Shown: positions 2,746 to 45,877 of the stretch, in pieces
Layout: each line of letters opens with the position of its first letter
Numbering within the stretch: the stretch's first letter is position 1
NCBI GenBank assembly: GCA_964368135.1
Contig: CAYIZI010000003.1
Span: 1 to 50,317 of the forward strand
Direction: 5' to 3'
Length of the DNA: 50,317 nt
Source of the DNA: an uncultured Candidatus Saccharibacteria bacterium
Lineage (GTDB): Bacteria; Patescibacteriota; Minisyncoccia; 2-02-FULL-40-12
Notes under the pieces: generated by a model
Told to the model about the DNA's origin: nothing
The model's database searches: none
The model's input: the letters and a program-made list of their open reading frames with translations, nothing else
Program-made: the position numbers and the translations under genes

Positions 2746-2781
2746 TTGTTTTTTGTTCATTACAACTTAGGAGAAAATGCA

Positions 2782-4665
2782 ATGAAAAGATGGCTATTGA
2801 CTCTCAGCGCCGCACTTGTGTTTGCTGCTTTGTTTTTCTTTGTCCCAGGACTGTCGGCCTTACAGGTCTTGACTTGGGTTCAGAGATTCCCTTCGCAAAA
2901 TCCAGGAGCCAGATTTTTTCACAGCATGGCTTATGATGAAGCAAGAGGTGGGGCAGTACTCTTTGGCGGATTTACGGGCCAGGACGCTTTAGCCGACACC
3001 TGGGCTTGGAATGGCAGCGATTGGGTTCAGCGGTTCCCCGTTCAAAGCCCTCCAGTGAGATACAGTCATGCAATGGCATACGATGGCGCCCGCGAAGAGG
3101 TTGTGCTCTTTGGAGGATTTCCATTTCCTGCCGGGACACTTTTTTCTGATACCTGGCTCTGGAATGGTGTCAATTGGACACAATCGCCTACAAGCGGTCC
3201 TTCGCGCCGGGGCGCGCATTCAATGGCTTATGATTCTGGGCGTAGAGAAACGCTTTTGTTTGGCGGTTCAAGCCAGACTGGCGGGGTGCTTGGCGATACT
3301 TGGATTTGGAACGGTGCAAACTGGATTCAGTTGTTTCCAACTGAAGCGCCTCCGGCCCGGATGCTTTTTGGGATGGCCTATGATGAAGCAAGAGGAGAAG
3401 TTGTTTTATTCGGAGGCACGACGCTGATCGCCGGGCAAGTCTTTGGTGATACTTGGGTTTGGGATGGCATAAACTGGGCTCAAAAGTCGTCTATTCGTCT
3501 GCCTCCGGCCAGGCGAGACCACAAGATGGTTTACGACAGGGCACGCCAGAGGGTTGTTCTTTTCGGCGGGATCAGTAACGACATTGCATTTTCTGACACC
3601 TGGAGCTGGGATGGTTCAAACTGGACTGAAGAAGCACCGCTGGCAAATCCAGGGCCAAGAGCCAGATATGGTTTGGCTTTTGACTCAACCAGGAATGAGG
3701 CCGTCCTTTTTGGCGGGACCGGTTATTCTGCTGGGGTTGGCTTCGCTGACACCTGGGTTTGGAGTGAAGTTACCGTTCCGGATCCAGTCCCGATTGGGCC
3801 GGAGATTCATTACTTTGCTTTGGGCGATTCGGTGGCTTCGGGTCACGGGCTTATGGATGACGGAACTCCTTGCCGCCGTTCTGATTTGGCGTATCCAAGT
3901 AAAGTAGCCGAGCGCCTTAAGGAACGGTACAAAGAGGTTCACTTTACTTCTTTGGCTTGTTCAGGAGCGAGAGTGAATTTCCCGGTAGAATTTTCCGACC
4001 CACACAAGTTCTTTTCAAACCAAGTCAATGATGTTGTTAGTGCTTTGAGAAGGATTGACGGTGTCCCGACTGTCGTCACCATCACTATCGGTGCCAATGA
4101 CTTTGGGTGGACTGAACTTCGACAGTTCACAGATTTGTTGTATTTAAGCAACCTAAATCGGTTTCAGAGAATTGTGAACAGAATTGGTGCGTCTGTTAGA
4201 CGGACTCTTCGACAGCAGGTTCCCCGGCTTCTTAGGTTCCAGAATGTTACTGTTGTGTTGACCGAGTACCATAATCCGTTCAACACCAACAGTGTATTCT
4301 TTTTAGGACCCGGAGGCCGTTGCGGTTTAATTGAGTGCTATGACCGGACCGAGTACGCCATACATACTTTGAACAACGCAATTGTTCAAGCTTATGTTGA
4401 CTTGGGCCGGCCAAGCAATTTGAAGCTGACGCCTATTCATGGTTTGTTTCACGGTCACGAAAGCCCAAGGCCTTCGTGCGGTAACAATGGGCCAGAAGTA
4501 AACGATACTTGGGTGCAGTACAAGGATGATCCGGACTCAAATAGTTTCCCCTTCAGATTGGATTCGAGTTGGCGAGGGGATTGTATGCACCCTAATAGCC
4601 GAGGCACAGACTTTTACGCGGCTCAAGTTAACTCTGACTTGATTGGCTTGTCCTTTGGTGAGTAG
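2782..4665 (+). CDS. secreted Kelch-repeat beta-propeller fused to an SGNH/GDSL hydrolase
   Basis: ATG at 2782 is preceded by AGGAG; the track start at 2746 is an upstream TTG. A signal peptide is present. About six units of the form W-W-NG-x-W plus MAYD...VLFGG. C-terminal SGNH blocks: GDSVASG, GANDFG and DCMHPN. GC is high (58% in line 3001-3060). Confidence 0.8.
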   Translation: MKRWLLTLSAALVFAALFFFVPGLSALQVLTWVQRFPSQNPGARFFHSMAYDEARGGAVLFGGFTGQDALADTWAWNGSDWVQRFPVQSPPVRYSHAMAYDGAREEVVLFGGFPFPAGTLFSDTWLWNGVNWTQSPTSGPSRRGAHSMAYDSGRRETLLFGGSSQTGGVLGDTWIWNGANWIQLFPTEAPPARMLFGMAYDEARGEVVLFGGTTLIAGQVFGDTWVWDGINWAQKSSIRLPPARRDHKMVYDRARQRVVLFGGISNDIAFSDTWSWDGSNWTEEAPLANPGPRARYGLAFDSTRNEAVLFGGTGYSAGVGFADTWVWSEVTVPDPVPIGPEIHYFALGDSVASGHGLMDDGTPCRRSDLAYPSKVAERLKERYKEVHFTSLACSGARVNFPVEFSDPHKFFSNQVNDVVSALRRIDGVPTVVTITIGANDFGWTELRQFTDLLYLSNLNRFQRIVNRIGASVRRTLRQQVPRLLRFQNVTVVLTEYHNPFNTNSVFFLGPGGRCGLIECYDRTEYAIHTLNNAIVQAYVDLGRPSNLKLTPIHGLFHGHESPRPSCGNNGPEVNDTWVQYKDDPDSNSFPFRLDSSWRGDCMHPNSRGTDFYAAQVNSDLIGLSFGE

Positions 4666-6601: not shown

Positions 6602-7580
6602 CTAAATTTATGCCGAATTTATTTTTAACTTTTTGTTTTAAGATTTTAGCCAGCTTTATTATTTCAGATGATTTGCCTTTGCCCGGATTAAAAATCAAAT
6701 TGCCATGATGCTTAGCTACTTTGATTCTTCCAACCTTCATTCCTTTAGCGCCGACTTCTTCCAGAAGATAACCAGTTGGCACCTTGCCGTGATTGACTTT
6801 GCTTTTGTCTATTTTTGATAAAAATTTTTGCCGCAGAGCCGGCCTTACATTATTAATAACAATATTTTTGAAAAAACTGCCTGGGCACAAAAGACCAGGC
6901 CAATATTTCTTTTCTCGCATTTTTATTATTTCTTTTGATGTTTTTTGAAGTTCCTTGGGATCGCCTTTTTTAAATTTGAACTCCGCCCCCAGAATTATCC
7001 AATCTTTTTTCCCTGCCCCATAGGAAGCCGGAGGCTTTCCTTCGGGGTTTTTAAAAATACTTTCCCGGTAACCAAAACGGCATTGTTTTTTTGAGAGCCA
7101 TTGAGTTTCCTTGCCGTTATAAATTTTCACTTTTGTCAGGCAATCTTTTATCTCTTGGCTGTAGGCGCCAGCCGAACCGTAAATCGCTCCGCCGATTGTG
7201 CCGGGAATCCCGGCCATTTTCTCCATTCCAGCCCAGCCAAACTGATTTAACTTATATATAAATGTAAGAAGATTATTTCCAGCGCCGACAAAAAATCTGT
7301 TTCCATTCTTTTCAAAATTTTTAATTTCATTTTTGATTACCAATCCGTTAAAACCCGAGTCAGACGGTACCAAATTTGAGCCGTCACCAATAATATACCA
7401 TTTAATTTTACTATCTTTTGCCCAGTTAATGGCCGAAATTAAATCATTTTCCTTTTTGGCAATAAAAAAATATTTGGCTGGCCCGCCAATTTTCATAGTC
7501 GTCAGTTTTTTAAGAGGATAATTTGTTAAAATCTTGGCTTTGGGAATCATTTTGGATGTTGATAACTTTTGTTGCACCAT
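6579..7580 (-). CDS. murB: UDP-N-acetylenolpyruvoylglucosamine reductase
   Basis: FAD-binding N-terminus (TTMKIGGPAKYF, GDGSNL) and a MurB C-terminal domain. An alternative start lies at 7550. It overlaps the murC start by 23 nt. Confidence 0.9.
   Translation of the reverse strand: MVQQKLSTSKMIPKAKILTNYPLKKLTTMKIGGPAKYFFIAKKENDLISAINWAKDSKIKWYIIGDGSNLVPSDSGFNGLVIKNEIKNFEKNGNRFFVGAGNNLLTFIYKLNQFGWAGMEKMAGIPGTIGGAIYGSAGAYSQEIKDCLTKVKIYNGKETQWLSKKQCRFGYRESIFKNPEGKPPASYGAGKKDWIILGAEFKFKKGDPKELQKTSKEIIKMREKKYWPGLLCPGSFFKNIVINNVRPALRQKFLSKIDKSKVNHGKVPTGYLLEEVGAKGMKVGRIKVAKHHGNLIFNPGKGKSSEIIKLAKILKQKVKNKFGINLDEEIQYI
7005..7051 (-). repeat. 47-nt in-frame hairpin element, copy in murB (peptide NPEGKPPASYGAGKK)
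   Basis: TTTTTTCCCTGCCCCATAGGAAGCCGGAGGCTTTCCTTCGGGGTTTT. This is the partner of 1634..1680. Confidence 0.75.
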
Positions 7581-7581
7581 T

Positions 7582-7599
7582 TATATCATATATGATATA
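7582..7599. promoter_or_regulatory. perfect 18-bp palindrome in the murB/murA divergent gap (candidate operator)
   Basis: TATATCATATATGATATA equals its own reverse complement. It occupies most of the 32-nt gap between the murB ATG (7580) and the HTH-murA ATG (7613). Confidence 0.5.
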
Positions 7600-7612
7600 T
7601 AAACTGAAAACA

Positions 7613-9088
7613 ATGAGCAATCAAATTACACAAAGAGATATTGGTAAGATGATAATTACTCGACGGACAGAACTCGGCATGACACAAAGTGCCCTTGCTA
7701 AGTTACTCCATACGAGTCAAAGTGCAGTAGCTCGTATTGAGAAGGGTGAGCAAAATCTTACAACTGAGACGCTTGTTAAAATAAGCGGAGCACTTAAGAA
7801 AGACCTCGCTTCTCTTCTAAGCGGCGAATCAAGTTTTTTTATTGAGGGTGGTCATACACTGGAAGGAAAAATTCGGGTACAGGGTGCTAAGAACTCTGCT
7901 CTGAAAATTCTTGCTGCTACACTTCTTTATAAAAGTCCGGTTACTATTCGAAACCTTCCACTTGTTGAAGACATATTCCGTATGATTGAACTTTTAGAAG
8001 ATCTTGGGGCTAAGGTACGCTGGATCGGCGAACGAAGCGTGGAGGCGGATACTTCTGGAGTGAGAAATTATAAGTTGAATCCCGCAATTGCCAAACGTTT
8101 TCGAGGTTCAATTGTACTTGTTGGGCCGCTATTGGCACGATTAGGTAAAGCTATTTTCCCTCACCCTGGTGGATGTGTTATTGGCGAACGCCCAATAGAT
8201 CTTTTTTTGAAGGGGTGGAAGAGTATGGGCGCCAGAGTGAGTAAGAGTGATTCAGGATATAATATTATACTCAAAAATCCTCTTAGTATTGATTATTTCT
8301 TTCGACACGTGAGTGTTACTAGCACCGAGACCTTGATGTTAACTGCAGCCATTCTCGATGGCAAGACCGTATTGCGGAATAGTGCTATGGAGCCGGAAAT
8401 TCCTCACCTTGCCGATTTTTTGAATAAATCCGGCGCAGCGATTACAGGCGCTGGAACGCACACAATAGAGATGACTGGCACTAGAGGATCTTTACTTACC
8501 GCCCGAAAACCATTTAATGTTTTGCCCGATAGAATTGAGACCGCAAATCTTTTGGTACTCGGCGCTCTTTTAGGCAAGAAGGTGGTTATTGAAAATTGTG
8601 TACCTCTTCATGTTCGCCAGATGACTGATACATTGCGTGAGGCAGGAGTTTTAATTGAAGAAGGCGTTAACTCTTTGGTAGTACACAAACCTAGGACACT
8701 AAATAGTATTTCAATACGTACGCATGAGTATCCAGGGTTTGTAACTGACTTCCAGGCACCGTTTACAGTATTGCTTACTCAAGCTTGTGGCGAAAGTACT
8801 GTTTTTGAAACAATCTTTGACGGACGTTTGAATTATTCCGAAGATTTAAACCGCATGGGCGCGCACATCATTATGCATAATCCTTATCGTATTTCTGTAT
8901 CAGGACCTTCTGAACTTCGTGGCCGCAAAATTGAGAGTCCTGACTTGCGAGCTGGTCTTGCTTTTGTAATTGCCGCACTCGTTGCAAAAGGGAAATCTGT
9001 GATTAGCAATATTTACCAGATTGACCGCGGCTATGAACGAATTGATCAAAGATTAAAAGTTCTTGGTGCTAAAATTTCTCGAGGATAA
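7613..9088 (+). CDS. murA: XRE-type HTH domain fused to UDP-N-acetylglucosamine 1-carboxyvinyltransferase
   Basis: About the first 70 aa match the HTH_3 pattern (RRTELGMTQSALAKLLHTSQSAVARIEKGEQN). They continue without a stop into MurA (GAKNSALKILAA). The catalytic-loop Cys is retained (HPGGCVIGERPIDLF). The ATG at 7613 is preferred over the track TTG at 7523, which overlaps murB. Confidence 0.85.
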   Translation: MSNQITQRDIGKMIITRRTELGMTQSALAKLLHTSQSAVARIEKGEQNLTTETLVKISGALKKDLASLLSGESSFFIEGGHTLEGKIRVQGAKNSALKILAATLLYKSPVTIRNLPLVEDIFRMIELLEDLGAKVRWIGERSVEADTSGVRNYKLNPAIAKRFRGSIVLVGPLLARLGKAIFPHPGGCVIGERPIDLFLKGWKSMGARVSKSDSGYNIILKNPLSIDYFFRHVSVTSTETLMLTAAILDGKTVLRNSAMEPEIPHLADFLNKSGAAITGAGTHTIEMTGTRGSLLTARKPFNVLPDRIETANLLVLGALLGKKVVIENCVPLHVRQMTDTLREAGVLIEEGVNSLVVHKPRTLNSISIRTHEYPGFVTDFQAPFTVLLTQACGESTVFETIFDGRLNYSEDLNRMGAHIIMHNPYRISVSGPSELRGRKIESPDLRAGLAFVIAALVAKGKSVISNIYQIDRGYERIDQRLKVLGAKISRG

Positions 9089-11131: not shown

Positions 11132-12226
11132 GTGAGGACTCATCTTCGGATTCTCGTCGGCTTGTTTGGGTTTTTGGTTTTCGGCGGCCCTGCTTTGCTT
11201 CGCAGTCAGAATCCGGCAAGTCACTCGGTACCCGAGTATCTTTGCCAATCAATGAAAGGATATGATCGGGCGATGTGCCTACATGGCGGCGATGGCAACC
11301 CCCAGGGCCCGTTGGCTAACCGCATTCCGGTCATCTTCATCCACGGCTGGAATTCCAAGGAAGTAGCAGGCGAGCCCGGCCTCCAAGTTTGGTCGGGGTT
11401 GGGCAGTCATCTTTACTACAGCCCCTGGTTCAAAGATAACTACAAAATGTACTTTCTTCTGTATTGGAGCAACATTCAAGGCTGGACTTTGAGAGATATG
11501 GGTTTGACTTTCCGTTCTTTGATTGAACAGATTGACCGGGCCGACCCGGATTTTAGAGGAAAGCCCCTAATTTTAATCGGCTACAGCATGGGCGGTTTGA
11601 TTGCCAGGTCTTACATGCAGGAGTTCAGGCCCGGTTCAAGCGGACGTAACGGAGACAGGGTTTTGAGATTGATTACCCTGGGTACGCCGCATCATGGTTC
11701 TCCGTTTGCCAATGGCCCGGCTCGGGATAATAAGGCCGGCGGCGTATGGCTTGAGACTATGCACCTGGTCATTGACGGCGGTCTTTTCGGCTTTGATATC
11801 CGCTGGGATATGGATAACCGTTATGACCTTCACTGGGATAACTATGATGGGCTGTTCGACTACGAAAGGTTTCCTGAAAACAGCATCTGGATGGAATGGC
11901 TGAACTCCGGCGACACGTTTGAGAGAAAAATCGTGGCCTACGGCGGCAAGGTAAGTCAGTTGGGCCAAATCAAGGACTGCGCTTTGGGGGCAGAGGGATC
12001 AGCCTGCTTCACGGCGATAATGAACGGAGCTCTCGGCATTTCCGAGAGCGACGGCTTTGTCCCGTTGAAAAGCGCGCTCTTTGATCCCTGCCAGGACTGC
12101 CTCGCCACTCATGTTTTTGAAGATTACGACCATAATGAGATTGTCCGCGGCAAGCCTCGACTTTTTGGGGAAACGGAGCCGCTCTTTGAGGGCGTCGCGA
12201 ATGATTTACTCAGTTTGGTTCGTTAA
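11132..12226 (+). CDS. secreted alpha/beta-hydrolase (lipase/esterase-like)
   Basis: GTG start after GGAGGGAGAGG. Signal peptide present. IFIHGW, nucleophile elbow GYSMGG and LGTPHHGS. GC is 62% in line 11281-11340. Confidence 0.75.
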   Translation: MRTHLRILVGLFGFLVFGGPALLRSQNPASHSVPEYLCQSMKGYDRAMCLHGGDGNPQGPLANRIPVIFIHGWNSKEVAGEPGLQVWSGLGSHLYYSPWFKDNYKMYFLLYWSNIQGWTLRDMGLTFRSLIEQIDRADPDFRGKPLILIGYSMGGLIARSYMQEFRPGSSGRNGDRVLRLITLGTPHHGSPFANGPARDNKAGGVWLETMHLVIDGGLFGFDIRWDMDNRYDLHWDNYDGLFDYERFPENSIWMEWLNSGDTFERKIVAYGGKVSQLGQIKDCALGAEGSACFTAIMNGALGISESDGFVPLKSALFDPCQDCLATHVFEDYDHNEIVRGKPRLFGETEPLFEGVANDLLSLVR

Positions 12227-13419: not shown

Positions 13420-13463
13420 TGTGGATAATTTAAACTTGCACAATATTCAGCATGATTTATAAT
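13420..13463 (+). promoter_or_regulatory. perfect DnaA-box 9-mer (TGTGGATAA) abutting a TTGCAC-16-TATAAT promoter
   Basis: Box at 13420..13428, -35 at 13436..13441, -10 at 13458..13463. The gene ATG is at 13485. Confidence 0.45.
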
Positions 13464-13484: not shown

Positions 13485-14000
13485 ATGATTAACACTAAAA
13501 TAATAACTATAATTCTGGTTGTAATTGCCGTTGTATTATTGATGTTTATTTTTAAACCCAACCTGCCAGAAAATATTACTCAAAGTCCAACGACTTCTCC
13601 TACTCCAACTCCCAGACAAATAAACCAGAATCTTACCCAAGATGAAAATAAATTATTATCTCAAGTACCGACTCAAGGTAGCAGCCCAGAAGAGTTAATG
13701 GCCCATTATAATTTGGCGGTTAAGCTGGCGGTTAGTTCTTCCCAGCTTGAGATCGGGGGTTGTGAGGTCAAGCCCTTGGTCCTTAAAGTTAAAGACGGTT
13801 CGTCATTCACTATCAAAAATTCCAGCGGCGAAGACAGGAGTATAAGTTTTGATGCTGATAATACTATCTTTGTTCCGGCTGGGAAAACCCATGTCCAACA
13901 GGTTAAGTTTAAAAACGGCCCGGGTCTCTATGGCTACGGATGCGATTTTCCGGATATAAGGCAAGCTGCCGGATTTGTTCTGGTTGAGCCCAAACAGTAA
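13485..14000 (+). CDS. membrane-anchored cupredoxin-like beta-sandwich protein (no obvious Cu ligand set)
   Basis: N-terminal TM helix and a Pro/Thr-rich linker. The C-terminal ~100 aa follow a cupredoxin-like pattern (KPLVLKVKDGSSFTIKNSSGEDRSISF ... PGLYGYGC ... AGFVLVEP). Confidence 0.55.
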   Translation: MINTKIITIILVVIAVVLLMFIFKPNLPENITQSPTTSPTPTPRQINQNLTQDENKLLSQVPTQGSSPEELMAHYNLAVKLAVSSSQLEIGGCEVKPLVLKVKDGSSFTIKNSSGEDRSISFDADNTIFVPAGKTHVQQVKFKNGPGLYGYGCDFPDIRQAAGFVLVEPKQ

Positions 14001-14048
14001 AATAACCTCTCTCCTGTTTTTAAAAACCGGTCAAATGGCTGGGTTTTT

Positions 14049-14077
14049 TTGATTCATCTTATCCAATTGGCTATACT
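14049..14077 (+). promoter_or_regulatory. sigma70-like promoter (TTGATT-17-TATACT)
   Basis: Read directly, 24 nt upstream of the GTG start at 14101. Confidence 0.45.
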
Positions 14078-14100
14078 AAGAGTGAAAGAATATTAAATAA

Positions 14101-15345
14101 GTGAAATCAAATATCAAAAAGACATTTATTATTTTTCTGTTGCTGGACATTGTTTTATTTGTCATTTTTATTTCCAAAAATTATTCGGTATTCAATCCCG
14201 GCGGAAATTTTTCCGGCGGGGATTTCAAAGAAATTGAAGCAATAAAAAATACGGATATGGATTTCCGTTCTTTATCTGTTTTTTTTACTGAACTGGCTGA
14301 TAAAAAAGGGGGCGAATACGCCTATAAATCCCTGGCTTTAGCCGCCCAGTTGTCATATATCCCGCCTAATATTGATCTTCATCTTTTAGGCCATGTGGTC
14401 GGAGATGTTTTATATAAGCAAAAAGGAATAGAAGGCATCAAGGTCTGTACTAATGATTTAAGAAACGCTTGTTCCCATTCAATTGTGGTCGGGGCCTTTC
14501 TTGAAAAAGGAACGTCGGTCTTAAAAGAAGTGGTAGAGCTTTGCAAGCTTGCCCCAGGCGGCAAGGGGGCTTTTACGATGTGTGTTCACGGTCTGGGCCA
14601 TGGGGTTTTGGCCTTTACCGAATACGACATGAAAGCAGCAGTCAAGCTCTGCGAAGATATTGGCAATCCGAACGCCGGGGACCGCATCTATACCGAATGT
14701 GTCGGCGGGATATCAATGGAAATGATGGCCGGAGTCAATGATCCGGAACAATGGGAAAAACAAAAACCCAATTATTTTAGCCAGACCGATCCGCTGGCCC
14801 CTTGTAATATGGATTTTATGCCCGAGGCGGCCAGGCCGATCTGCTATAATTTTTTGACCCCCCATCTTTTTCGGTCTGCCGGCGCAGAACTTAGCCGGCC
14901 GCTGCCAGAACATTTTAAAAAAGCCTTTACCTACTGCAGTAAAATTCCAAATAATCGGCCGGGCGAACGCAGTTCTTGTTTCGGCGGCTTTGGCAAGGAG
15001 TTTGTTGTCTTGGTTAATGACCGGAATGTCCAAAGCGTTGAAAATATGAATGATGACAGATTGGCCAGGATCTATGAATGGTGTTCTTTGACCAATGATC
15101 TTCAGGGCCGGAGCGACTGCATGCATTCGGCGCTCCAATCTCTTTACTGGGGCGGAGAAAATGACCGGGGAGCGGCTCTTAGGTTTTGCCGCCTCATTCA
15201 AAATGAAGACGATAATGCCAGTTGTTTTAACGGACTCATCGGCGCGGTCGGCTACTATATAGACGATAAGAGGTATAAGGAGAGTTTTTGCAATGAAGTT
15301 CCCGATAACATTAAAGATACTTGCCGCAAGCACCTTATCCGTTAG
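14101..15345 (+). CDS. Cys/His-rich membrane-anchored repeat protein, paralogue 1 of 3
   Basis: N-terminal TM helix. 16 Cys arranged as eight C-x(7-16)-C units. His motifs HLLGHVVGDVLY and CVHGLGHG are shared with paralogue 2. Confidence 0.7.
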   Translation: MKSNIKKTFIIFLLLDIVLFVIFISKNYSVFNPGGNFSGGDFKEIEAIKNTDMDFRSLSVFFTELADKKGGEYAYKSLALAAQLSYIPPNIDLHLLGHVVGDVLYKQKGIEGIKVCTNDLRNACSHSIVVGAFLEKGTSVLKEVVELCKLAPGGKGAFTMCVHGLGHGVLAFTEYDMKAAVKLCEDIGNPNAGDRIYTECVGGISMEMMAGVNDPEQWEKQKPNYFSQTDPLAPCNMDFMPEAARPICYNFLTPHLFRSAGAELSRPLPEHFKKAFTYCSKIPNNRPGERSSCFGGFGKEFVVLVNDRNVQSVENMNDDRLARIYEWCSLTNDLQGRSDCMHSALQSLYWGGENDRGAALRFCRLIQNEDDNASCFNGLIGAVGYYIDDKRYKESFCNEVPDNIKDTCRKHLIR

Positions 15346-15353
15346 TTTAAACT

Positions 15354-16451
15354 ATGCCGGCTAAAAATGATAAAAGATCATATGTTATTATATTGGTCCT
15401 GATTTTATTTATAACCGTAACTCTGTTTATTTATCTTAGGTTTGGTTCGGTTTTCGGATTGTATGAGTCATTGAAATATAAAAATAGTTCAAATCAGGAT
15501 TTAGTCGTTCCTAAAACCGGCGACCCTCTGGTCCAAGAGAAGGGTTGGTCTGATCTGATGGACCGGATCGGCGTGGCCGAAGCCTACCTGGCTTTTAAAA
15601 ATCAATACGATAATGAAAATTTTGGCGTTCAGCATACCGTGGCTCACATAATCGGCGAATTAATATATGAGAAAAAAGGCATTGAGGGGTTGACGATCTG
15701 CGACAGCGAATTTGCCTTTGGCTGTTACCATAGTTTTTTCGGATTGGCTTTAGCCGAAAACGGCACCTCGGTTATTCAAAAATTGGATGCCGAATGCGTC
15801 AAAAAGTACGGACCGCTTGGCACCGGCTGTCAGCACGGAATCGGCCATGGTTTGGTAGAGTATTTCGGCCATGACTATGGCGGACTCACAAAATCTCTGG
15901 ATGCTTGTAAGCTGACGACCCAAATGGCGCCCCTGGCTGGATGCACTTCGGGGGTGTTTATGGAGTTTAATCTTTCAACCATCCTCTCGGATAGAGGAGG
16001 AATCAGTAAGACCCGGGATTTTGATCCGGGACAACCCTATTATCCCTGTAACTTGATTTTGGCAAAATACAAAGACTCTTGTTATTATGAAATGGCCCAA
16101 TGGTTGAATAGTATCCCTGATTTTAATGATGATTTTGCCAATATTGGACGGCTTTGCCAGGGAGTTGAGAGCTACGAGAATCGGATTTCGTGCTACTTGG
16201 GCGTTGGAAATGTAGCCGGCCCTTCAAGCAACTATGAAGTCGAGAAAGCCAAAGAGAAGTGCAATAGCTTACCAACTAAAGAAGGCCGGATTGAATGTCT
16301 GGCCGGTGCGTCCTGGAGTTTTGATGCTAACCCGGATTTCAGGCCCTTGGCTTATTTGTTATGCGAAGGATTAAGTTCAACCGATACCGTCCATTGTATC
16401 CGGAGTTCCGATGTTTTAAAACAAAAAAAGAATAATCAGCAAGATATATAA
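15354..16451 (+). CDS. Cys/His-rich membrane-anchored repeat protein, paralogue 2 of 3
   Basis: N-terminal TM helix. HTVAHIIGELIYEKKGIEGL and CQHGIGHG align with paralogue 1. Seven C-x(n)-C units. Confidence 0.7.
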   Translation: MPAKNDKRSYVIILVLILFITVTLFIYLRFGSVFGLYESLKYKNSSNQDLVVPKTGDPLVQEKGWSDLMDRIGVAEAYLAFKNQYDNENFGVQHTVAHIIGELIYEKKGIEGLTICDSEFAFGCYHSFFGLALAENGTSVIQKLDAECVKKYGPLGTGCQHGIGHGLVEYFGHDYGGLTKSLDACKLTTQMAPLAGCTSGVFMEFNLSTILSDRGGISKTRDFDPGQPYYPCNLILAKYKDSCYYEMAQWLNSIPDFNDDFANIGRLCQGVESYENRISCYLGVGNVAGPSSNYEVEKAKEKCNSLPTKEGRIECLAGASWSFDANPDFRPLAYLLCEGLSSTDTVHCIRSSDVLKQKKNNQQDI

Positions 16452-16453
16452 CG

Positions 16454-17665
16454 ATGCCCCGCCGCATTAGAAGAATAAAACCCCTATATTTTATAATTAT
16501 TATTGCGGCGATTATCGCGGCTGAATCGGCTTGGTTGTTTTTTAATTCTGATCAATCTTTTTTTAAGAAAAAAACCATTGAGCAATACGCCCAGGAAGTG
16601 CTTCGGGCTTGCCGCCAGGCTAACTATCGGCCGACCTGCTATGATGAAGAAATTCCAAAACTTATGGATTATATTTCAATGGAGGATGCTTTTAAAGTAA
16701 CGCGGATAGTTCAGGACAATGATTCCAGTTATGCCTATTGTCATGTCTTAGCCCACGAGTTAAGCGCTCGGGAAGTTCAGAAAGACCCTTTAAATTGGAA
16801 AGATGTGGTTACGAGATGTCCAAGCGGGATGTGCTCTAACGGCTGTCTCCATGGCGGTTTTCAGGAAAAGTTCAGAGCCGAAAGTTTTACCCCTGAACAG
16901 ATTGAAGAACTAAAGCCGGATCTTTACTCTTTGTGCGAACGCCGAGATTCTTGGAATCCGACCGGCATGGAACAGGCCTCTTGCTATCACGCTCTCGGCC
17001 ATTTGACAATGTATGTGACCGGGGCCGACATATTCAAGTCGCTCGAAGTTTGCGACGAAACCGCTCTTAAAAAGGACGGCCGGGACTTTCGCCAACTATG
17101 CTATGACGGCGCGTTTATGCAAATATTCCAACCTCTTGAACCAGAGGATTTTGATTTAGTGGAAGGCAAGGAAGTTAAAAAAGAAGAATTGGAAAAGTTC
17201 TGTTCCCAATTCAGCGGCCATGAAAAAGCGTCTTGCCGAAGCGAGGGCTGGCCTCTTTTTCGCGACGAACTTCAAAAACCGGCCGAACTGGTTAAGTATT
17301 GTTCTAAGTCTGACCCGTCTGAATTAGGGAGGTGTTATAGCGCTATAATTTATGTTATGGCCGCCCAGTTTGGTCTGGATTCTGATAAAATTTATGAATA
17401 TTGTTCTGGCTTGCCTAACCCAGTTAGCGGCCAGTGCTTTGCTAATTCTGCTTCCAGGATGATAGAAACTGACTATAGAAATATTAATAAGGCCGTCACT
17501 TTATGCACTCGGGCCGCCGAATTTGACCGTAATAACCAATGCCTGAATGAAATGCTGGTCTACTCTGATTATAATTTCCATAGAGATTCACCCGAGTTTG
17601 CCGAAATTTGCCAGGCCCTGCCTCCCGGCTGGAAAGAAAAATGTCTAAGCGGCAATAAACTATAA
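16454..17665 (+). CDS. Cys/His-rich membrane-anchored repeat protein, paralogue 3 of 3 (divergent)
   Basis: N-terminal TM helix. CHVLAHELSA and CYHALGH motifs. Repeated C-x(9-16)-C units in the same register. Confidence 0.65.
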   Translation: MPRRIRRIKPLYFIIIIAAIIAAESAWLFFNSDQSFFKKKTIEQYAQEVLRACRQANYRPTCYDEEIPKLMDYISMEDAFKVTRIVQDNDSSYAYCHVLAHELSAREVQKDPLNWKDVVTRCPSGMCSNGCLHGGFQEKFRAESFTPEQIEELKPDLYSLCERRDSWNPTGMEQASCYHALGHLTMYVTGADIFKSLEVCDETALKKDGRDFRQLCYDGAFMQIFQPLEPEDFDLVEGKEVKKEELEKFCSQFSGHEKASCRSEGWPLFRDELQKPAELVKYCSKSDPSELGRCYSAIIYVMAAQFGLDSDKIYEYCSGLPNPVSGQCFANSASRMIETDYRNINKAVTLCTRAAEFDRNNQCLNEMLVYSDYNFHRDSPEFAEICQALPPGWKEKCLSGNKL

Positions 17666-17673
17666 TAAATTAA

Positions 17674-19209
17674 ATGTCCGCAAGCAGAATCCAAAGATTT
17701 TTACGGCAACATTGGTCAATCCTAATTTTGATAGCTATAGTAGTACTGGCTCTATGGGCGAGATTCCCGTTGATTGGTTATCCACTGACCGATACTGCCC
17801 AGGGTGAGCCGAGCCGCGATTACCTCGTTGCTAATCATATTTTATCTTTTCATGAGTGGCCGCTGACCGGTCCCTGGAATGGATTTTTCAGCGGTTTCTT
17901 AAATAGTCCCAGCTATTATTATTTAATCGCCTTTTTTCTGTTATTTAGAAATAGTATTGTTTTTTTAGTTTTAGTAAATATTTTACTTCAAGTAATCACC
18001 GGCATACTGCTCTATATTCTGGGGTATAAACTTTTCAGTGAGAGTACAGGATTATCCGCTGCCTTATTATTTCTTTTCAGCAATGAAAATATATTTTTTC
18101 ATTCTCAGTATTTTTGGCAACCCTATGTGATGCAAGTTGTTTTAATACTTGCCTTTCTGCTTATCTGTATGTCTTTTCAAAATAAAAGAATCGGGTGGCT
18201 TTTGGCTGGTATATCTGCTTTTATATTTGCCACGTCACTTCACATGTCTGCGCTGGGAATCTTACCTGTTTTTGGGGTAGCCGCAGCAGCTTCCTTTAAA
18301 AGAATGGATCCTAGTCAAAGGAAATACCCGTTTGTTATTTCTACCGCCGTTGGCAGCTTATTTTTATTGTACGGCCCGCTCCTATTTTTTAATCATCCTT
18401 ATGATCCGGCGGACCGGATGATAAACTTAAACGGCTTAACCACTGCCTCTCTCGGTCCTTATTGGCTGCAATTCAGACTTGTTTTATTGAAGATGGCCGA
18501 GGTTTTTGTCAGAGACATTAATTTTCATAGCGCTATAGCCATTATTTTTGCCGGTCTTTTATTGGCAAAGTCCTTAATCGGCGGCGGAGCATTAACCAGG
18601 ACTAAACTATGTTTTATTACTGCTGGTATTTTTATTTTGCCAATTATGCTTGCTTTCGCAGAGGCGACCTATCATAGATTTTACTTTATACCAATATTCG
18701 GACTGGTTATATTACTTTTAGCCGGTGTTATTGATGATGTCTTTTCCGGATCAGCCCGCGTTTTTAAATGGATAGTTGTGGCCGGATTCTTTATTCTCAT
18801 TTCTGGCAAGTTGAGTTTTTTAGACCTTCAGTCTCGGGGACCGTACAATTCAACAATAGAACAGGCCGTAAGCGCTGTTGCTCACTTTGACATTTTGTCT
18901 TTTTCGGTCGCGGCTTATGCTCAAGAATCGGAGAATGCCCCGGCCTTAGTTTCAATGCATCCCGCTCTATTAATCGCCCCATTGGAAAATTATTTTAAAC
19001 TTCCGCTGTCAAATATTGATACTTTTCTTTCAAGCGGTTATGAATTGAGTAATAATAACTCAAAGAGAATGCTCATACTTTGTAGGGGCTTAGAGCTGGC
19101 CAGCAAGGATATTTGCGCCGCTCAATTTCACAAAGATCATCCGGGTTATACTGTTGAAAGAGAAATTTTTTATACTTACCCCTTGTTAATTTTAATTGCT
19201 GACAAGTGA
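17674..19209 (+). CDS. polytopic membrane protein, possibly GT-C (ArnT/PMT-like) glycosyltransferase fold
   Basis: 511 aa with at least 10 hydrophobic segments, then a soluble C-terminal domain of about 130 aa. The family assignment is tentative and rests on topology only. Confidence 0.45.
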   Translation: MSASRIQRFLRQHWSILILIAIVVLALWARFPLIGYPLTDTAQGEPSRDYLVANHILSFHEWPLTGPWNGFFSGFLNSPSYYYLIAFFLLFRNSIVFLVLVNILLQVITGILLYILGYKLFSESTGLSAALLFLFSNENIFFHSQYFWQPYVMQVVLILAFLLICMSFQNKRIGWLLAGISAFIFATSLHMSALGILPVFGVAAAASFKRMDPSQRKYPFVISTAVGSLFLLYGPLLFFNHPYDPADRMINLNGLTTASLGPYWLQFRLVLLKMAEVFVRDINFHSAIAIIFAGLLLAKSLIGGGALTRTKLCFITAGIFILPIMLAFAEATYHRFYFIPIFGLVILLLAGVIDDVFSGSARVFKWIVVAGFFILISGKLSFLDLQSRGPYNSTIEQAVSAVAHFDILSFSVAAYAQESENAPALVSMHPALLIAPLENYFKLPLSNIDTFLSSGYELSNNNSKRMLILCRGLELASKDICAAQFHKDHPGYTVEREIFYTYPLLILIADK

Positions 19210-19628
19210 TTACCAGAAATAAAGTTTTAATTATAATCTTTTTGACCGTTGCTCTGGCATCCGTTTCTTATGTTTTGTATCTTGGCCGCAAGAAGGGTAC
19301 TTCTTATGGTTACAAAAATGTCCAAAGCTTTGATAAATCTCTTATTGTTTCAAACGATATCGTGGTCACAGGGAAAAGTGATGGATTTTATCCTTCAGAA
19401 ATTGCTATTAAGAAAGGCACTCGGGTGGTTTGGGTGAATGAAAGCGGCCGTCCGTTTTGGCCGGCTTCTAATCTTCATCCGACCCATGAACTGTATCCTG
19501 AATTTGATCCCAAAGAGCCGGTCCCAGACGGCCAGGCCTGGAGTTTTACCTTTAAAAAAATAGGCGATTGGCCGTATCATGACCACTTAAGACCCAGTAG
19601 AAGAGGAATCATCAAAGTAACCGATTAG
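19206..19628 (+). CDS. membrane-anchored cupredoxin-like protein
   Basis: N-terminal TM helix. FYPSEIAIKKGTRVVWVNES ... WSFTFKKIGDWPYHDHL ... GIIKV resembles a plastocyanin-like fold. The canonical Cys ligand is replaced (YHDH). It overlaps the upstream gene by 4 nt. Confidence 0.55.
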   Translation: MITRNKVLIIIFLTVALASVSYVLYLGRKKGTSYGYKNVQSFDKSLIVSNDIVVTGKSDGFYPSEIAIKKGTRVVWVNESGRPFWPASNLHPTHELYPEFDPKEPVPDGQAWSFTFKKIGDWPYHDHLRPSRRGIIKVTD

Positions 19629-19784: not shown

Positions 19785-20078
19785 ATGGCTATTAGCAGAG
19801 CCGCCCACTCTTTGCCCGATTTTTTCAGGCCCCTAATGTGGTCCTACGATTTTAATTCTTTGGATTTGGAGAAAAATAAAAAAACCATAATCGTAAATAC
19901 GATCAACTACGGCGACTTAAAGCATTGGCGTTGGATAGCGAAGCATTACGGTAAAAACAGGATTAAAGAGGTTTTAGGGGCGATCCCGGCCCAAGAATTA
20001 AGAAACAGAGCCAGAAAATTAGCTTCCCTGATTTTTTCGTTACAAGATTTCAACTATGCACCGAGAGGCGCTAAATGA
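19785..20078 (+). CDS. small protein of unknown function, upstream partner of the AbiEii-like fragment
   Basis: 97-aa ORF that overlaps the next ORF by 23 nt in another frame. The arrangement is typical of two-gene TA-like modules. Confidence 0.45.
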   Translation: MAISRAAHSLPDFFRPLMWSYDFNSLDLEKNKKTIIVNTINYGDLKHWRWIAKHYGKNRIKEVLGAIPAQELRNRARKLASLIFSLQDFNYAPRGAK

Positions 20079-20454
20079 AGAAGGCAAAAAATTATTCCCC
20101 CTTTTTAACAAGCTTTTCAATCTTATTCAGCCGTTCGTTGAATACGAAGGAGTGAGGCTGTTGAGTATTGAAGAAATCGGCGCGACGAAAGCATACGTGA
20201 TAGGCCGGCGGGGGGACTTTAAGGATTATGTCGATTTGTACTATATTTTATCCGAAGGTTATTCCTCGCTGGAAAAAATAGTTAATGTTGCTGAAACAAA
20301 GTATCAGAATGAGTTTAACTCAAGGTTATTTTTAGAGCAACTGGTGTATTTAGAAGATATAGAAGAGTCTCAACTTATATTTTTGAAAAAACAAATGGCA
20401 AAAAAAGAATTAGAAATTTTTTTTAGCGAAGCAATCAGGAACTTAAAGTTGTAA
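20056..20454 (+). pseudogene. nucleotidyltransferase AbiEii-like toxin, internally truncated
   Basis: The N-terminal MHREALNEEGKKLFPLF and the C-terminal SIEEIGATKAYVIGRRGDFKDYVDLYYIL resemble AbiEii-family proteins from memory. The catalytic segment expected between them is absent. Confidence 0.4.
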
Positions 20455-20539: not shown

Positions 20540-20764
20540 ATGGACACGATTACTATTCCTAAGACCGAATATAGAAAGTTAAAGAGTTATTCCTCGGCCT
20601 ATCTTAAAATTGTAGAAAAAATCGCCGAAGCTGAGCGAGATTATTCCTATGATTATAACTATATAGACAAGCTTACTCGTCAGGCAAAATTAGATTACAA
20701 AAAAGGAAAGGCCATTGAAGCAGATTCAGTGGACGAAGCGGTGATGAAATTTAATAAAAAATGA
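20540..20764 (+). CDS. putative antitoxin (74 aa)
   Basis: Small acidic ORF whose stop overlaps the toxin start in ATGA. Confidence 0.5.
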   Translation: MDTITIPKTEYRKLKSYSSAYLKIVEKIAEAERDYSYDYNYIDKLTRQAKLDYKKGKAIEADSVDEAVMKFNKK

Positions 20765-21012
20765 GGATTTTCTATTCCTCTAAATTTCTCCGTTCATTTG
20801 ATAAACTGCCAAAGCCGATTCAAAACGAGTTTCGAAAGAAAGAGATTGTTTTTAGAGAAAATCTTCACGATCCAGGCCTGCGGACGCACAAATTAAAAGA
20901 CAGAAGGGAATGGGGTTTTTTGATCACCTATAAGATTCGGGTGATTTTTGTTTTTGAAAAAAGTCATATTCTTTTCGTAAATATAGGCGACCACTCTATT
21001 TATCGGAGATAA
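20761..21012 (+). CDS. RelE/ParE-superfamily toxin-like protein (83 aa)
   Basis: The pattern FLRSFDKLPKPIQ ... THKLKD ... WGFLITYKIRVIFVFE ... FVNIGDHSIY is typical of RelE/YafQ-like mRNA interferases. Confidence 0.6.
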   Translation: MRIFYSSKFLRSFDKLPKPIQNEFRKKEIVFRENLHDPGLRTHKLKDRREWGFLITYKIRVIFVFEKSHILFVNIGDHSIYRR

Positions 21013-29567: not shown

Positions 29568-29675
29568 AGTGGTTATTTTGAAGTATAATAAGTCCAGTCG
29601 CTCACAGGAGCAAATCAATTTCCACGCCTTCTGAAGGAAGCTAAATTGATTTTATCTGTAAGCGACCGGACTATC

Positions 29676-30731
29676 ATGTCTTTATTTGGCCCAAAAACTG
29701 TTTTAGGAATTGATTTGGGAACATCCGGCGTCAAAATAGCCGAACTTTCCCATTCCGGCGGGAGGTTTGATTTAAAAAACTACGGTCTTCTTGATTTTAC
29801 GGATAAAGACGAAACCGCCCTCAAGCTCGGCGATCAGGTTTTAGCAAACGGAATCAAAGAACTTTTAAGTAAAACCAAGGTTTCAACCAAAAACGTGATT
29901 GTTTCAATTTCTTCTTTTTTAACTTTTGCAACGGTGATTGAACTGCCTTATCTTTCAGAGAAAGATTTGGAAAAGGCAATTCCTTTTGAAGCAAGAAAAT
30001 ATATTCCCGTTCCGCTTGAGGAACTGGTTTTGGACTGGTCAATTGTCAATGTTAAAGAAATTTCCGAGCATCAAAACAGCAATGTTCCCCAGTCAAAGTA
30101 TCCAAACGTAGAAATATTTTTAGCGGCGGTGCCAAAAGCCGAAGCTGAAAAATATAAGAATATTTTCGCTTTAGCCGGGCTTAATCTTAGAGCTCTTGAA
30201 CTGGAAAATATTGCCCTGGTTCGTTCTTTGATCGGCGAAGATTTATCTCCAATGGCAATTATAAATTTGGGCGGCCGGAGCACCTCAATTTTCATCATTG
30301 ATAAGGGCTTTGAAAGAATTACCCGAAACTACGAATTGGGCGGTTTTGAGTTAACAAAAACTTTATCCAGAGCCCTGGGTGTGAGTTTTGAGAGAGCCGA
30401 ACAGATGAAGAAGACCGAAGGTTTAAAGGCGACTTCTTCTGATTTGGCCGATGCCCTTACTCCCTTGGTTGATTTGATTGTTTTTGAAACCCAAAAAATT
30501 ATTTCAAATTATGAGGAAGCTAAAAAAGTCAAAATAAACAAGATTATTTTAAGCGGCCGCCAAGCCAATATGCCAGGCTTTAGAGAGTATTTTAATCAAA
30601 AATTGAAAGTAGCCACCGTCATCGGCGACCCCTTCAGGAATGTTTCCTTTAACCGGCTGCTTGGCCCGACTTTAAAAGATTTAGGGCCGGCTTTGTCAGT
30701 GGCCATAGGCTTGGCAATGAGGAAGATTTAG
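29676..30731 (+). CDS. pilM: type IV pilus assembly ATPase-like protein PilM
   Basis: Actin-like fold N-terminus VLGIDLGTSGVKIAEL. The ATG at 29676 is preferred to the TTG at 29646. Confidence 0.8.
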   Translation: MSLFGPKTVLGIDLGTSGVKIAELSHSGGRFDLKNYGLLDFTDKDETALKLGDQVLANGIKELLSKTKVSTKNVIVSISSFLTFATVIELPYLSEKDLEKAIPFEARKYIPVPLEELVLDWSIVNVKEISEHQNSNVPQSKYPNVEIFLAAVPKAEAEKYKNIFALAGLNLRALELENIALVRSLIGEDLSPMAIINLGGRSTSIFIIDKGFERITRNYELGGFELTKTLSRALGVSFERAEQMKKTEGLKATSSDLADALTPLVDLIVFETQKIISNYEEAKKVKINKIILSGRQANMPGFREYFNQKLKVATVIGDPFRNVSFNRLLGPTLKDLGPALSVAIGLAMRKI

Positions 30732-30734
30732 TTA

Positions 30735-30852
30735 GCAAGATAGCGAGAGAGCAAGATAGGTTTTAGGGCTGTTAATAATTTTAATAGCCGGATGTTTATA
30801 AATATTATAAAATTTATACATTGAAAACCTAAAACCTATCCTGCTATCTGGC
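30735..30852. repeat. imperfect ~30-bp inverted repeat flanking an AT-rich 60-nt spacer (pilM-pilN gap)
   Basis: The left arm GCAAGATAGCGAGAGAGCAAGATAGGTTTTAGG pairs with the right arm CCTAAAACCTATCCTGCTATCTGGC. The 13-bp core GATAGGTTTTAGG/CCTAAAACCTATC is perfect. Confidence 0.5.
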
Positions 30853-30859
30853 TACATTT

Positions 30860-31393
30860 ATGCCTGAATTAGAATTACTTCCGGAAAAAACAAAGAGAGT
30901 TGAGATAAGAACGCAAAGAAAACTCGGCTCGGGTGTTTCGTGGCTTGTTTTAGTTTTAATTTTATACGGAGCTATTTTATTTTATAACCGAAGTTTGGAA
31001 GTTAGGGTCCAGGAGCTTGATGCTCAATTTTCAGCTTTTAACCAGTCAAGAAACAGGGCCCAGGAAGACAGATTAAAAGAAGTTGAATCAAAGTTAAATC
31101 GGGGCCAGACCCTTTTGGGCGAGCATGCTCTTTGGTCTAAGGGATTTGAAAAAGTCCAGGCCCTGACCCTGCCTTCGGTTCAGTTCCTGTCTTTAAATGC
31201 TTCATTGCCGGAGTTGAAATTTGAGTTCAGGGCGACCGCTCCTAATTTAACCGCCATTGCCAAACAAGGAGCCAACTTTTTGTCTGACGGCTCGGTTAAA
31301 GACATATCAATAAGCCAGCTTAAAATTTTAACCACTGGCCGAACCGAGTTTGTCATAAAAATAACCTTTAACCGGGACCAATTTCTAAAATAA
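30860..31393 (+). CDS. PilN-like bitopic pilus assembly protein
   Basis: A single TM helix after a charged N-terminus, plus its position after pilM. The call rests on topology and synteny. Confidence 0.5.
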   Translation: MPELELLPEKTKRVEIRTQRKLGSGVSWLVLVLILYGAILFYNRSLEVRVQELDAQFSAFNQSRNRAQEDRLKEVESKLNRGQTLLGEHALWSKGFEKVQALTLPSVQFLSLNASLPELKFEFRATAPNLTAIAKQGANFLSDGSVKDISISQLKILTTGRTEFVIKITFNRDQFLK

Positions 31394-31401
31394 CAACGAA
31401 C

Positions 31402-31920
31402 ATGACCAAATTCCTTTCCTCAATCTTAACAGCTGGTTCAATCTTGATTTTCTTTATTCTGGTTTTGCCTTCTTTTGACCAGACCAGAATTTTAAGAAAC
31501 GAAATAGAAGAAAGAAACAACATTTTGGCAGAAGCCGAAGAGATTACCAATAGAGTCCGGGAGATTAATAATGAAATAGATTTGCGCCGAAGCGATATAG
31601 AGAGGCTGGATAATCTTTTGCCGGAACAAAAAGAACTTCCGGAGTTGTTGTCCAATCTTGAGTCAATTGTTTCGGCTTCGGGTATGGCCCTGTCGGAGCT
31701 GAATCTTTCCGAGCTTACCGCTGAAGGAGAGTTTAGAAAAATCGGCGGGAGCGCCAGACTTAACGGCAGTTTTACTTCTTTCACTAATTTTTTGGATTTG
31801 CTTGAGAGGAACTTAAGATTGATTGACGTCACTGCCATCAGCGCCACTTTGCAGGCGGCTGAAGGGAGCGGCAGAATAAGTTATGATGTCAGATTTGAGA
31901 CCAGTTATTTGTCCAGATGA
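31402..31920 (+). CDS. PilO-like bitopic pilus assembly protein
   Basis: N-terminal TM helix, a coiled-coil segment, and position after the pilN-like gene. Confidence 0.5.
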   Translation: MTKFLSSILTAGSILIFFILVLPSFDQTRILRNEIEERNNILAEAEEITNRVREINNEIDLRRSDIERLDNLLPEQKELPELLSNLESIVSASGMALSELNLSELTAEGEFRKIGGSARLNGSFTSFTNFLDLLERNLRLIDVTAISATLQAAEGSGRISYDVRFETSYLSR

Positions 31921-31957
31921 TAATATTTAAATATTAAAGTATTTAAACTTTTACTTT

Positions 31958-32254: not shown

Positions 32255-32311
32255 TCCAAGAATCAAAATGATAAGCTAAAAATTTTAATTTTTGATTTTT
32301 GATATTTTACT

Positions 32312-34057: not shown

Positions 34058-34092
34058 AATATTTAAACATTTAAATATTTAAATGTGAGAAG

Positions 34093-35157: not shown

Positions 35158-35160
35158 ACA

Positions 35161-45728: not shown

Positions 45729-45754
45729 TTTAATTTTTTAAACCTTTAAATTCC

Positions 45755-45775: not shown

Positions 45776-45877
45776 ACTTTTAATAATCTTTTCATTTTAA
45801 AGTTTCAGATATTTTTTATTTCAATCTTTATTAAGGTTTCAACATCTATTTTAGTTTTTAACTGGATAAATAACAAC

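Follow-up and report, generated by a model that had tools for sequence, protein, structure and literature searches.

Helical cysteine-pair modules and a Cys-less cupredoxin in a Patescibacteria gene cluster: a possible extracytoplasmic metal-binding complex

What might a metabolically minimal bacterium do with six adjacent genes for membrane-anchored or membrane-embedded proteins, three of which are related to each other and to no named family? This question is raised by a gene cluster on contig CAYIZI010000003.1 of an uncultured Candidatus Saccharibacteria bacterium, of which we analyzed a stretch of 50,317 nucleotides (hereafter, the window). All six genes were recovered as open reading frames (ORFs) on the plus strand, in agreement with the original prediction, which had been made from the sequence alone: g1 (13485-14000, 171 amino acids), pA (14101-15345, 414 amino acids), pB (15354-16451, 365 amino acids), pC (16454-17665, 403 amino acids), g5 (17674-19209, 511 amino acids) and g6 (19206-19628, 140 amino acids). 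The cluster had been proposed to represent an undescribed extracytoplasmic redox, metal-handling or envelope-modification module. Here, we report that its conserved unit is the helical module represented by pA, pB and pC plus the cupredoxin-like domain of g6, with or without g1, and we tentatively read the cluster as an extracytoplasmic metal-binding complex.

Helical modules and their cupredoxin-like partners

To examine the conservation of the cluster, we compared 80 loci from GTDB species representatives and five loci from contig look-ups (85 in total, 82 of which are non-redundant); many loci end at contig edges, and all locus counts are lower bounds. BLAST over the 85 loci identified pA-type and pB-type genes in 84 and pC-type genes in 72. 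Profile searches of the 82 non-redundant loci detected the helical module in 81, the g6 domain in 61, g1 in 34 and g5 in eight. The modules occur in arrays of 2-10 per locus (median 4.5). The closest relative examined contains, in this order, a 184-amino-acid gene (g1-sized, with no Pfam match), pA, pB, pC, a 117-amino-acid gene and g6, and lacks g5. A g1 orthologue was found directly upstream of pA in locus L001 (39% identity, E-value 3e-40). Thus, the idea that the six genes co-occur as a unit holds for the module and the g6 domain (± g1), which are not scattered independently among relatives, but it does not hold for g5.

Fusions between the two conserved components are common. By BLAST, g6-module fusions were observed in 40 of the 82 loci, and the profile search detected 39 fused ORFs in 29 loci. 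One example is a 505-amino-acid protein of L001 (15455-16972), in which a g6-type domain (41% identical to g6, E-value 3e-35) is followed by a module (E-value 3e-9 to pB). Other arrangements include g6-module-g6-module (P0289), module-module-g6-g6 (P0271 and P0265) and g6-module-module (L058, 14500-16890), whereas P0008 combines pA-type and pB-type modules in one chain. Cupredoxin_1 is the sole Pfam domain recurrently fused to the module. Because the module and the g6 domain are repeatedly found fused in one chain, we regard them as the core of the system.

The three central proteins had been described as paralogues built from Cys-pair units with His-rich motifs, and both parts of this description were confirmed. 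BLASTP E-values were 4e-20 between pA and pB, 2e-8 between pA and pC and 6e-4 between pB and pC, and no fourth paralogous copy was found within the window. The 16 Cys of pA form eight pairs with a within-pair spacing of 7-15 residues; pB has 14 Cys (seven pairs) and pC has 20. Five His occupy equivalent positions in all three paralogues (H94, H98, H126, H163 and H167 in pA; H94, H98, H126, H161 and H165 in pB; H97, H101, H133, H179 and H183 in pC). The first three long helices bear the motifs HxxxH, CxH and CxHGxGHG, two of which place HxxxH on a helix. In pA, the His-cluster region (14374-14721, plus strand) includes D92, H94, H98, C116, C124, H126, C148, C161, H163, H167, C184, C200, M206 and E207.

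These positions are strongly conserved. In an alignment of 59 pA orthologues with 45-69% identity to pA, D92, H94, H98, R121, S125, H126, H163, H167, E207 and all 16 Cys are invariant. Among 356 paralogues from the 85 loci, His was observed at H94 in 250 of 253 aligned sequences, at H98 in 252 of 253, at H126 in 239 of 261, and at both H163 and H167 in 328 of 329. In the same set, M206 is conserved in 278 of 316 sequences, and position 207 is Glu in 211 and Gln in 63. The five His are therefore kept at 92-99.7% of aligned residues in proteins whose remaining sequence falls to ~22-28% identity.

An AlphaFold2 model of pA, based on the 59-sequence alignment, is all-alpha and contains no strands (predicted local distance difference test, pLDDT, 93.6; predicted template modelling score, pTM, 0.85). 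A transmembrane (TM) helix at residues 2-31 is followed by approximately 20-21 helices, and each Cys pair consists of one residue at the end of a helix and another in the first turns of the next. In a profile-profile comparison of the units, units 5 and 7 scored 92.5%, units 3 and 5 85.5%, and units 7 and 8 81.8%; by this comparison, units 3, 5, 7 and 8 are homologous repeats. Cys pairs are kept or lost jointly across the family (279/293; 10 sequences lack both members and 1 + 1 lack a single one), and the total number of Cys is even in 276 of the 356 members (78%). Thus, pA, pB and pC are solenoids of about eight helical hairpins with conserved Cys pairs, which represent putative disulfides. 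DsbA-like thioredoxin genes adjoin the cluster in 10 loci at a median distance of 58 nt, such as the gene in L038 (4670-5416; Thioredoxin_4, E-value 5e-38), which fits disulfide formation in the Cys-pair proteins.

With regard to the distribution of the family, pA-like proteins form 1045 clusters at 90% identity, all of which are unnamed or annotated as 'hypothetical', and the whole module family comprises 3170 clusters at 50% identity. Giant members of up to 3580 amino acids carry 7-8 modules (P0198 and P0237). The named sources are nearly all Patescibacteria, including Nomura-, Doudna-, Kaiser-, Colwell-, Sungii-, Yanofsky- and Daviesbacteria as well as Paceibacterota. The earlier statement that the paralogues could not be assigned to any known family was borne out by our searches: pA, pB and pC had no match in Pfam (even at E ≤ 1), NCBIfam or PHROGs, neither pA alone nor the 59-sequence profile matched any PDB sequence, and Foldseek of the pA model yielded no PDB fold match at E ≤ 1e-3. 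Only generic ARM, HEAT, Sel1 and TPR solenoids were retrieved by Foldseek, with best E-values of 0.012 in PDB and 0.005 in BFVD and a template modelling score of ~0.2. The module family is likewise not described in the literature that we surveyed on cupredoxins of Patescibacteria (also known as the Candidate Phyla Radiation, CPR), on cysteine-rich families, on Cys-less cupredoxins and on copper combined with structure prediction. Neither for the modules nor for their regular association with a His-rich cupredoxin that lacks Cys did we find a counterpart in these family libraries, solved structures and literature, and the function of the system is hypothetical. Patescibacteria represent much of bacterial diversity, and genes that are kept in their very small genomes and expanded into arrays of up to 10 copies are likely to be important.

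The two flanking proteins had been considered to resemble cupredoxins without the classical ligand set, which is correct for both g6 and g1: homology to the cupredoxin fold is present in each, and the full His-Cys-His-Met (or Gln) set is absent from each. The g6 family profile matched amicyanin with an E-value of 4.9e-9. In this alignment H91 lies at the place of the His53 ligand, D126 takes that of Cys92, and the positions of His95 and Met98 are not conserved. The invariant residues of g6 are W85-P-A-S88, H91, P92, H94, F100-D-P102, H125 and H127 (WPASNLHPTH ... YHDH). One of the four type-1 ligands is thus retained, and the two loops that ordinarily bind copper carry four invariant His. By profile and alignment, g6 is a true, membrane-anchored and Cys-less cupredoxin homologue. 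Comparison of the g6 profile with laccase and ascorbate oxidase was insignificant (E-values of 0.6-0.8). We also considered whether g6 is similar to subunit II of quinol oxidases and rejected this possibility, as its similarity to COX2 reached an E-value of just 0.44 and no CyoB was found nearby. Four g6 homologues (P0123, P0132, P0135 and P0142) have been named 'plastocyanin' by the Joint Genome Institute (JGI), yet they lack the Cys and Met ligands. This name is misleading for g6-type proteins, because a classical type-1 carrier is not possible once the Cys ligand is gone.

The g1 protein is also membrane-anchored, and contains a Ser/Thr/Pro-rich linker (SPTTSPTPTP) followed by a cupredoxin-like beta domain. 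It had no Pfam match. In PDB, the profile of its family (31 aligned sequences) matched NirK (E-value 1.2e-4), plastocyanin (2.6e-4) and the Cupredoxin_1 structure 4hcf (6e-4), and comparison of the g1 and g6 families by hhalign gave 93.9% (E-value 1.6e-7) and placed C153 on the canonical Cys-ligand position. Invariant residues of the g1 family are C93, P97, N112, C153 and G163. Of the classical ligands, the g1 protein in the window has only the Cys position and none of the His and Met. The cluster thus encodes another cupredoxin-like protein besides g6, one whose two invariant Cys lie at the canonical metal end.

A possible metal-binding complex and its alternatives

The location of the proteins is relevant to any proposed function. 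A single N-terminal hydrophobic segment was detected in each of g1, pA, pB, pC and g6, and approximately 10 in g5, consistent with the previous description of an N-terminal anchor or many TM segments in every product. The products of the cluster are predicted to face the outside of the cytoplasm; the extracytoplasmic location proposed earlier is supported as a prediction by this topology, by the pA model and by the Cys pattern.

We tentatively favor, with somewhat less than even confidence, the reading that the cluster encodes a membrane-anchored, extracytoplasmic metal-binding complex. Such a complex would be specific to Patescibacteria and anchored at the external face of the membrane. Because adjacent genes are found fused, pA, pB and pC may assemble with g6 into a complex at the cell surface. 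The Cys pairs of the solenoid modules would form disulfides, and the His face of the solenoids and the His loops of the cupredoxin would bind one or more transition-metal ions. Its role might be to capture metal and pass it on, or to carry out extracellular oxidoreductase reactions. The regular module-cupredoxin fusion gives a concrete metal-binding hypothesis for an otherwise blank family.

If a metal is bound, copper is the most likely first guess, although we hold copper to be less likely than the metal-binding complex itself. Copper is suggested because the His of g6 lie on the copper loops of the cupredoxin fold, because HPxH and HxH flank the type-1 positions as in the interface sites of multicopper oxidases (MCOs) and NirK, because a conserved Met accompanies one HxxxH, and because g1 retains a Cys pair at the metal end.

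The arrangement of the His was further addressed by mean-field direct coupling analysis (DCA) of 319 module sequences. The couplings were noisy; they included plausible hairpin registers and also pairs that are incompatible with a monomer. Helix register and this noisy DCA suggest that H94/H98 and H163/H167 lie on neighboring parallel helices, 1-2 turns apart, with H126 further along. A bolder proposal, which we regard as doubtful, is that the Cys-less cupredoxin and the disulfide-stapled His solenoid form an unprecedented extracytoplasmic multi-His metal centre where these two unrelated folds meet, probably containing copper, which is multiplied in the arrays. If true, metabolically minimal CPR bacteria would have a dedicated surface machine for redox chemistry or metal acquisition.

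On the other hand, several points weigh against a metal-binding complex. Instead of a single compact site, the His may form a ladder of ~30 Å (or two sites). A diversified surface or binding family would account for arrays with as many as 10 paralogues, and for the giants with 7-8 modules, just as well as an enzyme would. Since many of these organisms inhabit oxygen-free settings, the scope for copper-oxidase chemistry is limited. Finally, the recurrent neighbors of the clusters include no metal transporter, metallochaperone or metal-responsive regulator, and no riboswitch.

Another recurrent neighbor, which is absent from the window and which we count in favor of the metal-binding reading, is a family of Ig-like (immunoglobulin-like) proteins of ~170 amino acids. 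It was found in 28 of the 82 loci, always adjacent to and co-directional with module or g6 genes (for example, L022: 17714-18202; L003: 16271-16813; L031: 13301-13795). The signal peptide of these proteins ends in an invariant Ala-His, which predicts a mature protein with an N-terminal His; an invariant Glu follows seven residues on, and a TM helix is present at the C-terminus. Only weak matches to Ig, PKD and filamin domains were obtained. The layout recalls that of His-brace copper proteins such as YcnI or CopC. No homology to either protein was found.

The best surviving alternative, which we nevertheless consider unlikely, is a diversifying surface or adhesion family. In this case the solenoids would be non-catalytic binding scaffolds with which an episymbiont attaches to its host or captures ligands. 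The cupredoxin-like domains would be spacers of an Ig-like kind; the invariant His would have a structural role or contact ligands instead of binding metal. Tandem arrays of 2-10 paralogues per locus, giants with 7-8 modules and low identity between paralogues are what such a family should look like, the generic ARM/HEAT/Sel1-like solenoid fold is typical of binding scaffolds, and every product is anchored in the membrane with a predicted outward orientation. It was also reported that novel transmembrane and secreted proteins, which are thought to serve cell-cell interaction, are overrepresented in Patescibacteria (PMC10849945). However, the near-invariance of five His, one Met and one Glu/Gln amid extensive drift is rare for adhesins, the four invariant His of g6 fall exactly at the metal loops of cupredoxins, and the fusion of g6 to the module is too regular for a mere spacer.

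A further possibility is acquisition of iron or another cation in the manner of EfeO, whereby the cupredoxin oxidizes or captures the ion and the helical domain holds it for a permease encoded elsewhere. The extracytoplasmic location is compatible with this possibility, and the architecture matches that of EfeO/EfeM, including fused and helical-only forms (PMC9174327). Nevertheless, the modules show no similarity to Peptidase_M75/imelysin by Pfam or fold, their helical motif is HxxxH rather than the HxxE of M75, and neither an FTR1/EfeU-type permease nor a DyP peroxidase is present among the recurrent neighbors in the 82 loci or the scanned ORFs of the window. We therefore consider an EfeO-like system improbable.

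It might also be argued that the solenoids are extracellular enzymes, either hydrolases or lyases, whose substrates are polymers or lipids of the host or the environment and whose His are catalytic or Zn-binding. An HxxxH on one helix combined with a downstream Glu/Gln on another helix could suit such an enzyme, an Abhydrolase_2 esterase is fused to the module in one relative (L007, 13767-15905), and genes for secreted alpha/beta-hydrolases, SGNH proteins and sulfatases occasionally lie nearby. This appears distinctly improbable, since the HxxxH motifs (HLLGH and HGLGH) lack the catalytic Glu of the zincin HExxH, the searches found no resemblance to peptidases, lyases or hydrolases at the level of family or fold, and the hydrolase neighbors are sporadic.

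The last alternative concerns g5, which had been suggested to have the topology of GT-C transferases and whose conserved first-loop acidic motif was to be examined. Our results agree with this suggestion. Besides its ~10 TM segments, g5 matched PMT_2 with an E-value of 2.6e-4 (21.7 bits, below the cut-off of 26.1), and five of six g5 orthologues from related loci also matched PMT_2 weakly (16-25 bits) over the same region of the profile. Residues 44-240 of g5 are similar to the bona fide PMT_2 domain of P0171 (BLASTP E-value 1e-11), a protein that reaches 61.9 bits against PMT_2. All seven g5 orthologues keep R48-D49 in the first loop, within a G(E/D)xxRD motif that is shared with P0171. The AlphaFold2 model of g5 is shallow, as the homologue search returned four proteins, and of moderate quality (pLDDT 60.7, pTM 0.64), yet it gave a clear answer on the fold. 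Its top 35 Foldseek matches in PDB are all GT-C enzymes (AglB/STT3, ArnT, Pmt4, ALG12, PglB and EmbB), 11 of them at E ≤ 1e-3, with AglB at 8.5e-5. The C-terminal domain is family-specific and has two invariant Cys. These lines of evidence agree on a GT-C fold, and g5 is a glycosyltransferase-like protein of this type.

PMT-type enzymes glycosylate Ser/Thr/Pro-rich linkers, and by analogy g5 could plausibly glycosylate such linkers in anchored proteins of the cluster, for example g1. However, because g5 was found in just eight of the 82 related loci, it is an occasional accessory and not a conserved part of the cluster. Its rarity, its absence from the closest relative and its position on the opposite strand in L008 and L086 imply that the other five genes function without it. 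An envelope-modification operon centred on g5, with the other five products as substrates or helpers, is most improbable for the same reasons, in spite of the GT-C fold with its invariant first-loop Asp, the translational coupling of g5 and g6 through a 4-nt overlap, the linker of PMT-substrate kind in g1 and the carbamoyltransferase, GT2 and SGNH genes near some relatives. Within the earlier proposal of a redox, metal-handling or envelope-modification module, it is the envelope-modification part that is weakened by these observations.

Transcription of the cluster and context in the window

The original prediction placed all six genes in one operon behind a promoter flanked by DnaA boxes. The junctions from pA to g6 are tight (gaps of 8, 2 and 8 nt, followed by the 4-nt overlap of g5 and g6). 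In contrast, g1 and pA are separated by 100 nt. Consensus scans, the only basis for both features, located in this gap a terminator-like hairpin with a T-run (14027-14042, plus strand) and a predicted sigma-70-like site, TTGATT-17-TATACT (14049-14077, plus strand). Because the gap holds a terminator-like hairpin and a promoter-like site, a single six-gene transcript is uncertain, and g1 may be its own transcription unit as predicted from these consensus matches. Rfam searches covering the whole window and the leader of g1 detected no riboswitch or leader RNA.

The DnaA-box-flanked promoter was not supported. Only one perfect DnaA box, TTATCCACA at 13420-13428 on the minus strand, lies upstream of g1. 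Matches with up to one mismatch number 16 in the window, compared with 10.9 ± 3.4 in shuffled sequences, and six of 100 shuffles reach 16. Enrichment of DnaA boxes upstream of g1 was rejected, as the near-match count is no higher than expected by chance. Perfect boxes alone number four in the whole window, compared with ~0.4 expected for a 9-mer. Two of these (45878 and 46286, both on the minus strand) lie in a region of ~1.8 kb (45729-47513) that contains no ORF of at least 80 amino acids. The cumulative GC skew reaches its maximum in this region, the flanking genes are convergent and no Rfam match was found; the region may have a part in replication or encode a non-coding RNA.

Several genes around the cluster are also worth recording. 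A secreted alpha/beta-hydrolase (PGAP1-like or lipase-like; 11132-12226) is encoded two genes upstream of g1, and a Kelch-repeat and GDSL-lipase fusion protein (2746-4665) is located further upstream. Near the clusters of L001 and L003, SGNH/GDSL genes and a carbamoyltransferase gene were observed. Directly downstream of g6 (19785-20454), a gene for a DUF6922 protein (97 amino acids) overlaps a truncated AbiEii-like nucleotidyltransferase toxin gene (132 amino acids); this pair is probably a type IV toxin-antitoxin system. It is followed by a small ORF (20761-21012) that has no Pfam match.

Elsewhere in the window, one ORF (7523-9088) combines an XRE-type HTH_3 domain (residues 47-96, E-value 3e-13) with a full EPSP-synthase/MurA-family domain (E-value 5e-74). 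This may be explained either by an uncommon fusion or by a wrongly called TTG start, from which the frame reads on across a small regulator gene. Type IV pilus genes (PilM, PilB-like and PilT-like ATPases, and PilC; 29646-36390), the NAD-dependent ligase LigA (41176-43236), an amidase (43542-44954) and eight tRNA genes are ordinary chromosomal context for Patescibacteria.

Comparison with known systems

Each component of the cluster resembles a known system in some respects and departs from it in others. ArnT, PMT and STT3/AglB are the relevant counterparts of g5, which is likewise polytopic, has a PMT_2-type N-terminal module with an invariant Asp in the first outer loop and matches GT-C folds. 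It differs from them in scoring under the Pfam gathering threshold and in its family-specific C-terminal domain with two invariant Cys.

For the solenoids, Sel1-like proteins and the Helicobacter cysteine-rich proteins (Hcp) offer a comparison. These are secreted hairpin-repeat solenoids with a disulfide-capable Cys pair in each repeat. The modules also have helical hairpin repeats with Cys pairs, detectable homology between units and a predicted extracytoplasmic location. However, Hcp are not known to have an invariant His cluster or a cupredoxin partner, and pA, pB and pC gave no Sel1, TPR or HEAT Pfam match at E ≤ 1.

The small blue copper proteins amicyanin and plastocyanin share their fold with g6 and g1 by homology; g6 keeps the first His ligand and g1 the Cys position. 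In contrast to them, g6 has Asp instead of Cys, no second His or Met, and three extra invariant His (H94, H125 and H127). Neither g6 nor the g1 protein of the window can build a classical blue copper electron-transfer site. In MCOs and NirK, His that flank the type-1 ligands (HCH and HPxH) bind further copper at a domain interface. The HDH and HPTH of g6 occupy equivalent places, but g6 has one HxH and no Cys, and its partner is a helical solenoid and not a second cupredoxin. A multicopper oxidase centre, which is defined by four HxH including HCH, does not fit g6 on this count. A type-3 copper protein of the hemocyanin/tyrosinase kind, with six His in a four-helix bundle, was rejected: the module has five invariant His and matched neither the Tyrosinase nor the Hemocyanin family of Pfam. 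For g1, a likeness may be drawn to CupA of Streptococcus pneumoniae, which is a membrane-anchored protein with a cupredoxin fold that binds Cu(I) via Cys, although CupA was not among the PDB matches of the g1 profile.

With respect to the system as a whole, EfeO/EfeM consist of an N-terminal cupredoxin-like domain and a helical metal-binding domain, and exist in both fused and helical-domain-only forms (PMC9174327). The differences lie in the helical part and in the partners. M75 domains have HxxE and GEEDRY motifs, whereas the cluster has HxxxH, CxH and CxHGxGHG with Cys pairs; M75/imelysin gave no Pfam match at E ≤ 1 and was absent from the top 50 Foldseek matches, and the HxxE/GEEDRY motifs are absent from the sequences. 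Furthermore, the proteins of the cluster are TM-anchored and encoded in multi-paralogue arrays, and no EfeU or EfeB partner was found. The likeness concerns architecture only: both systems are extracytoplasmic and join a cupredoxin-like domain without a classical type-1 site to an all-helical one that bears a conserved motif, either in one chain (as in L001, P0289, P0271, P0265 and L058) or, in the window, as separate genes. In architecture, EfeO is the closest counterpart of the cluster, with a helical part that is not homologous.

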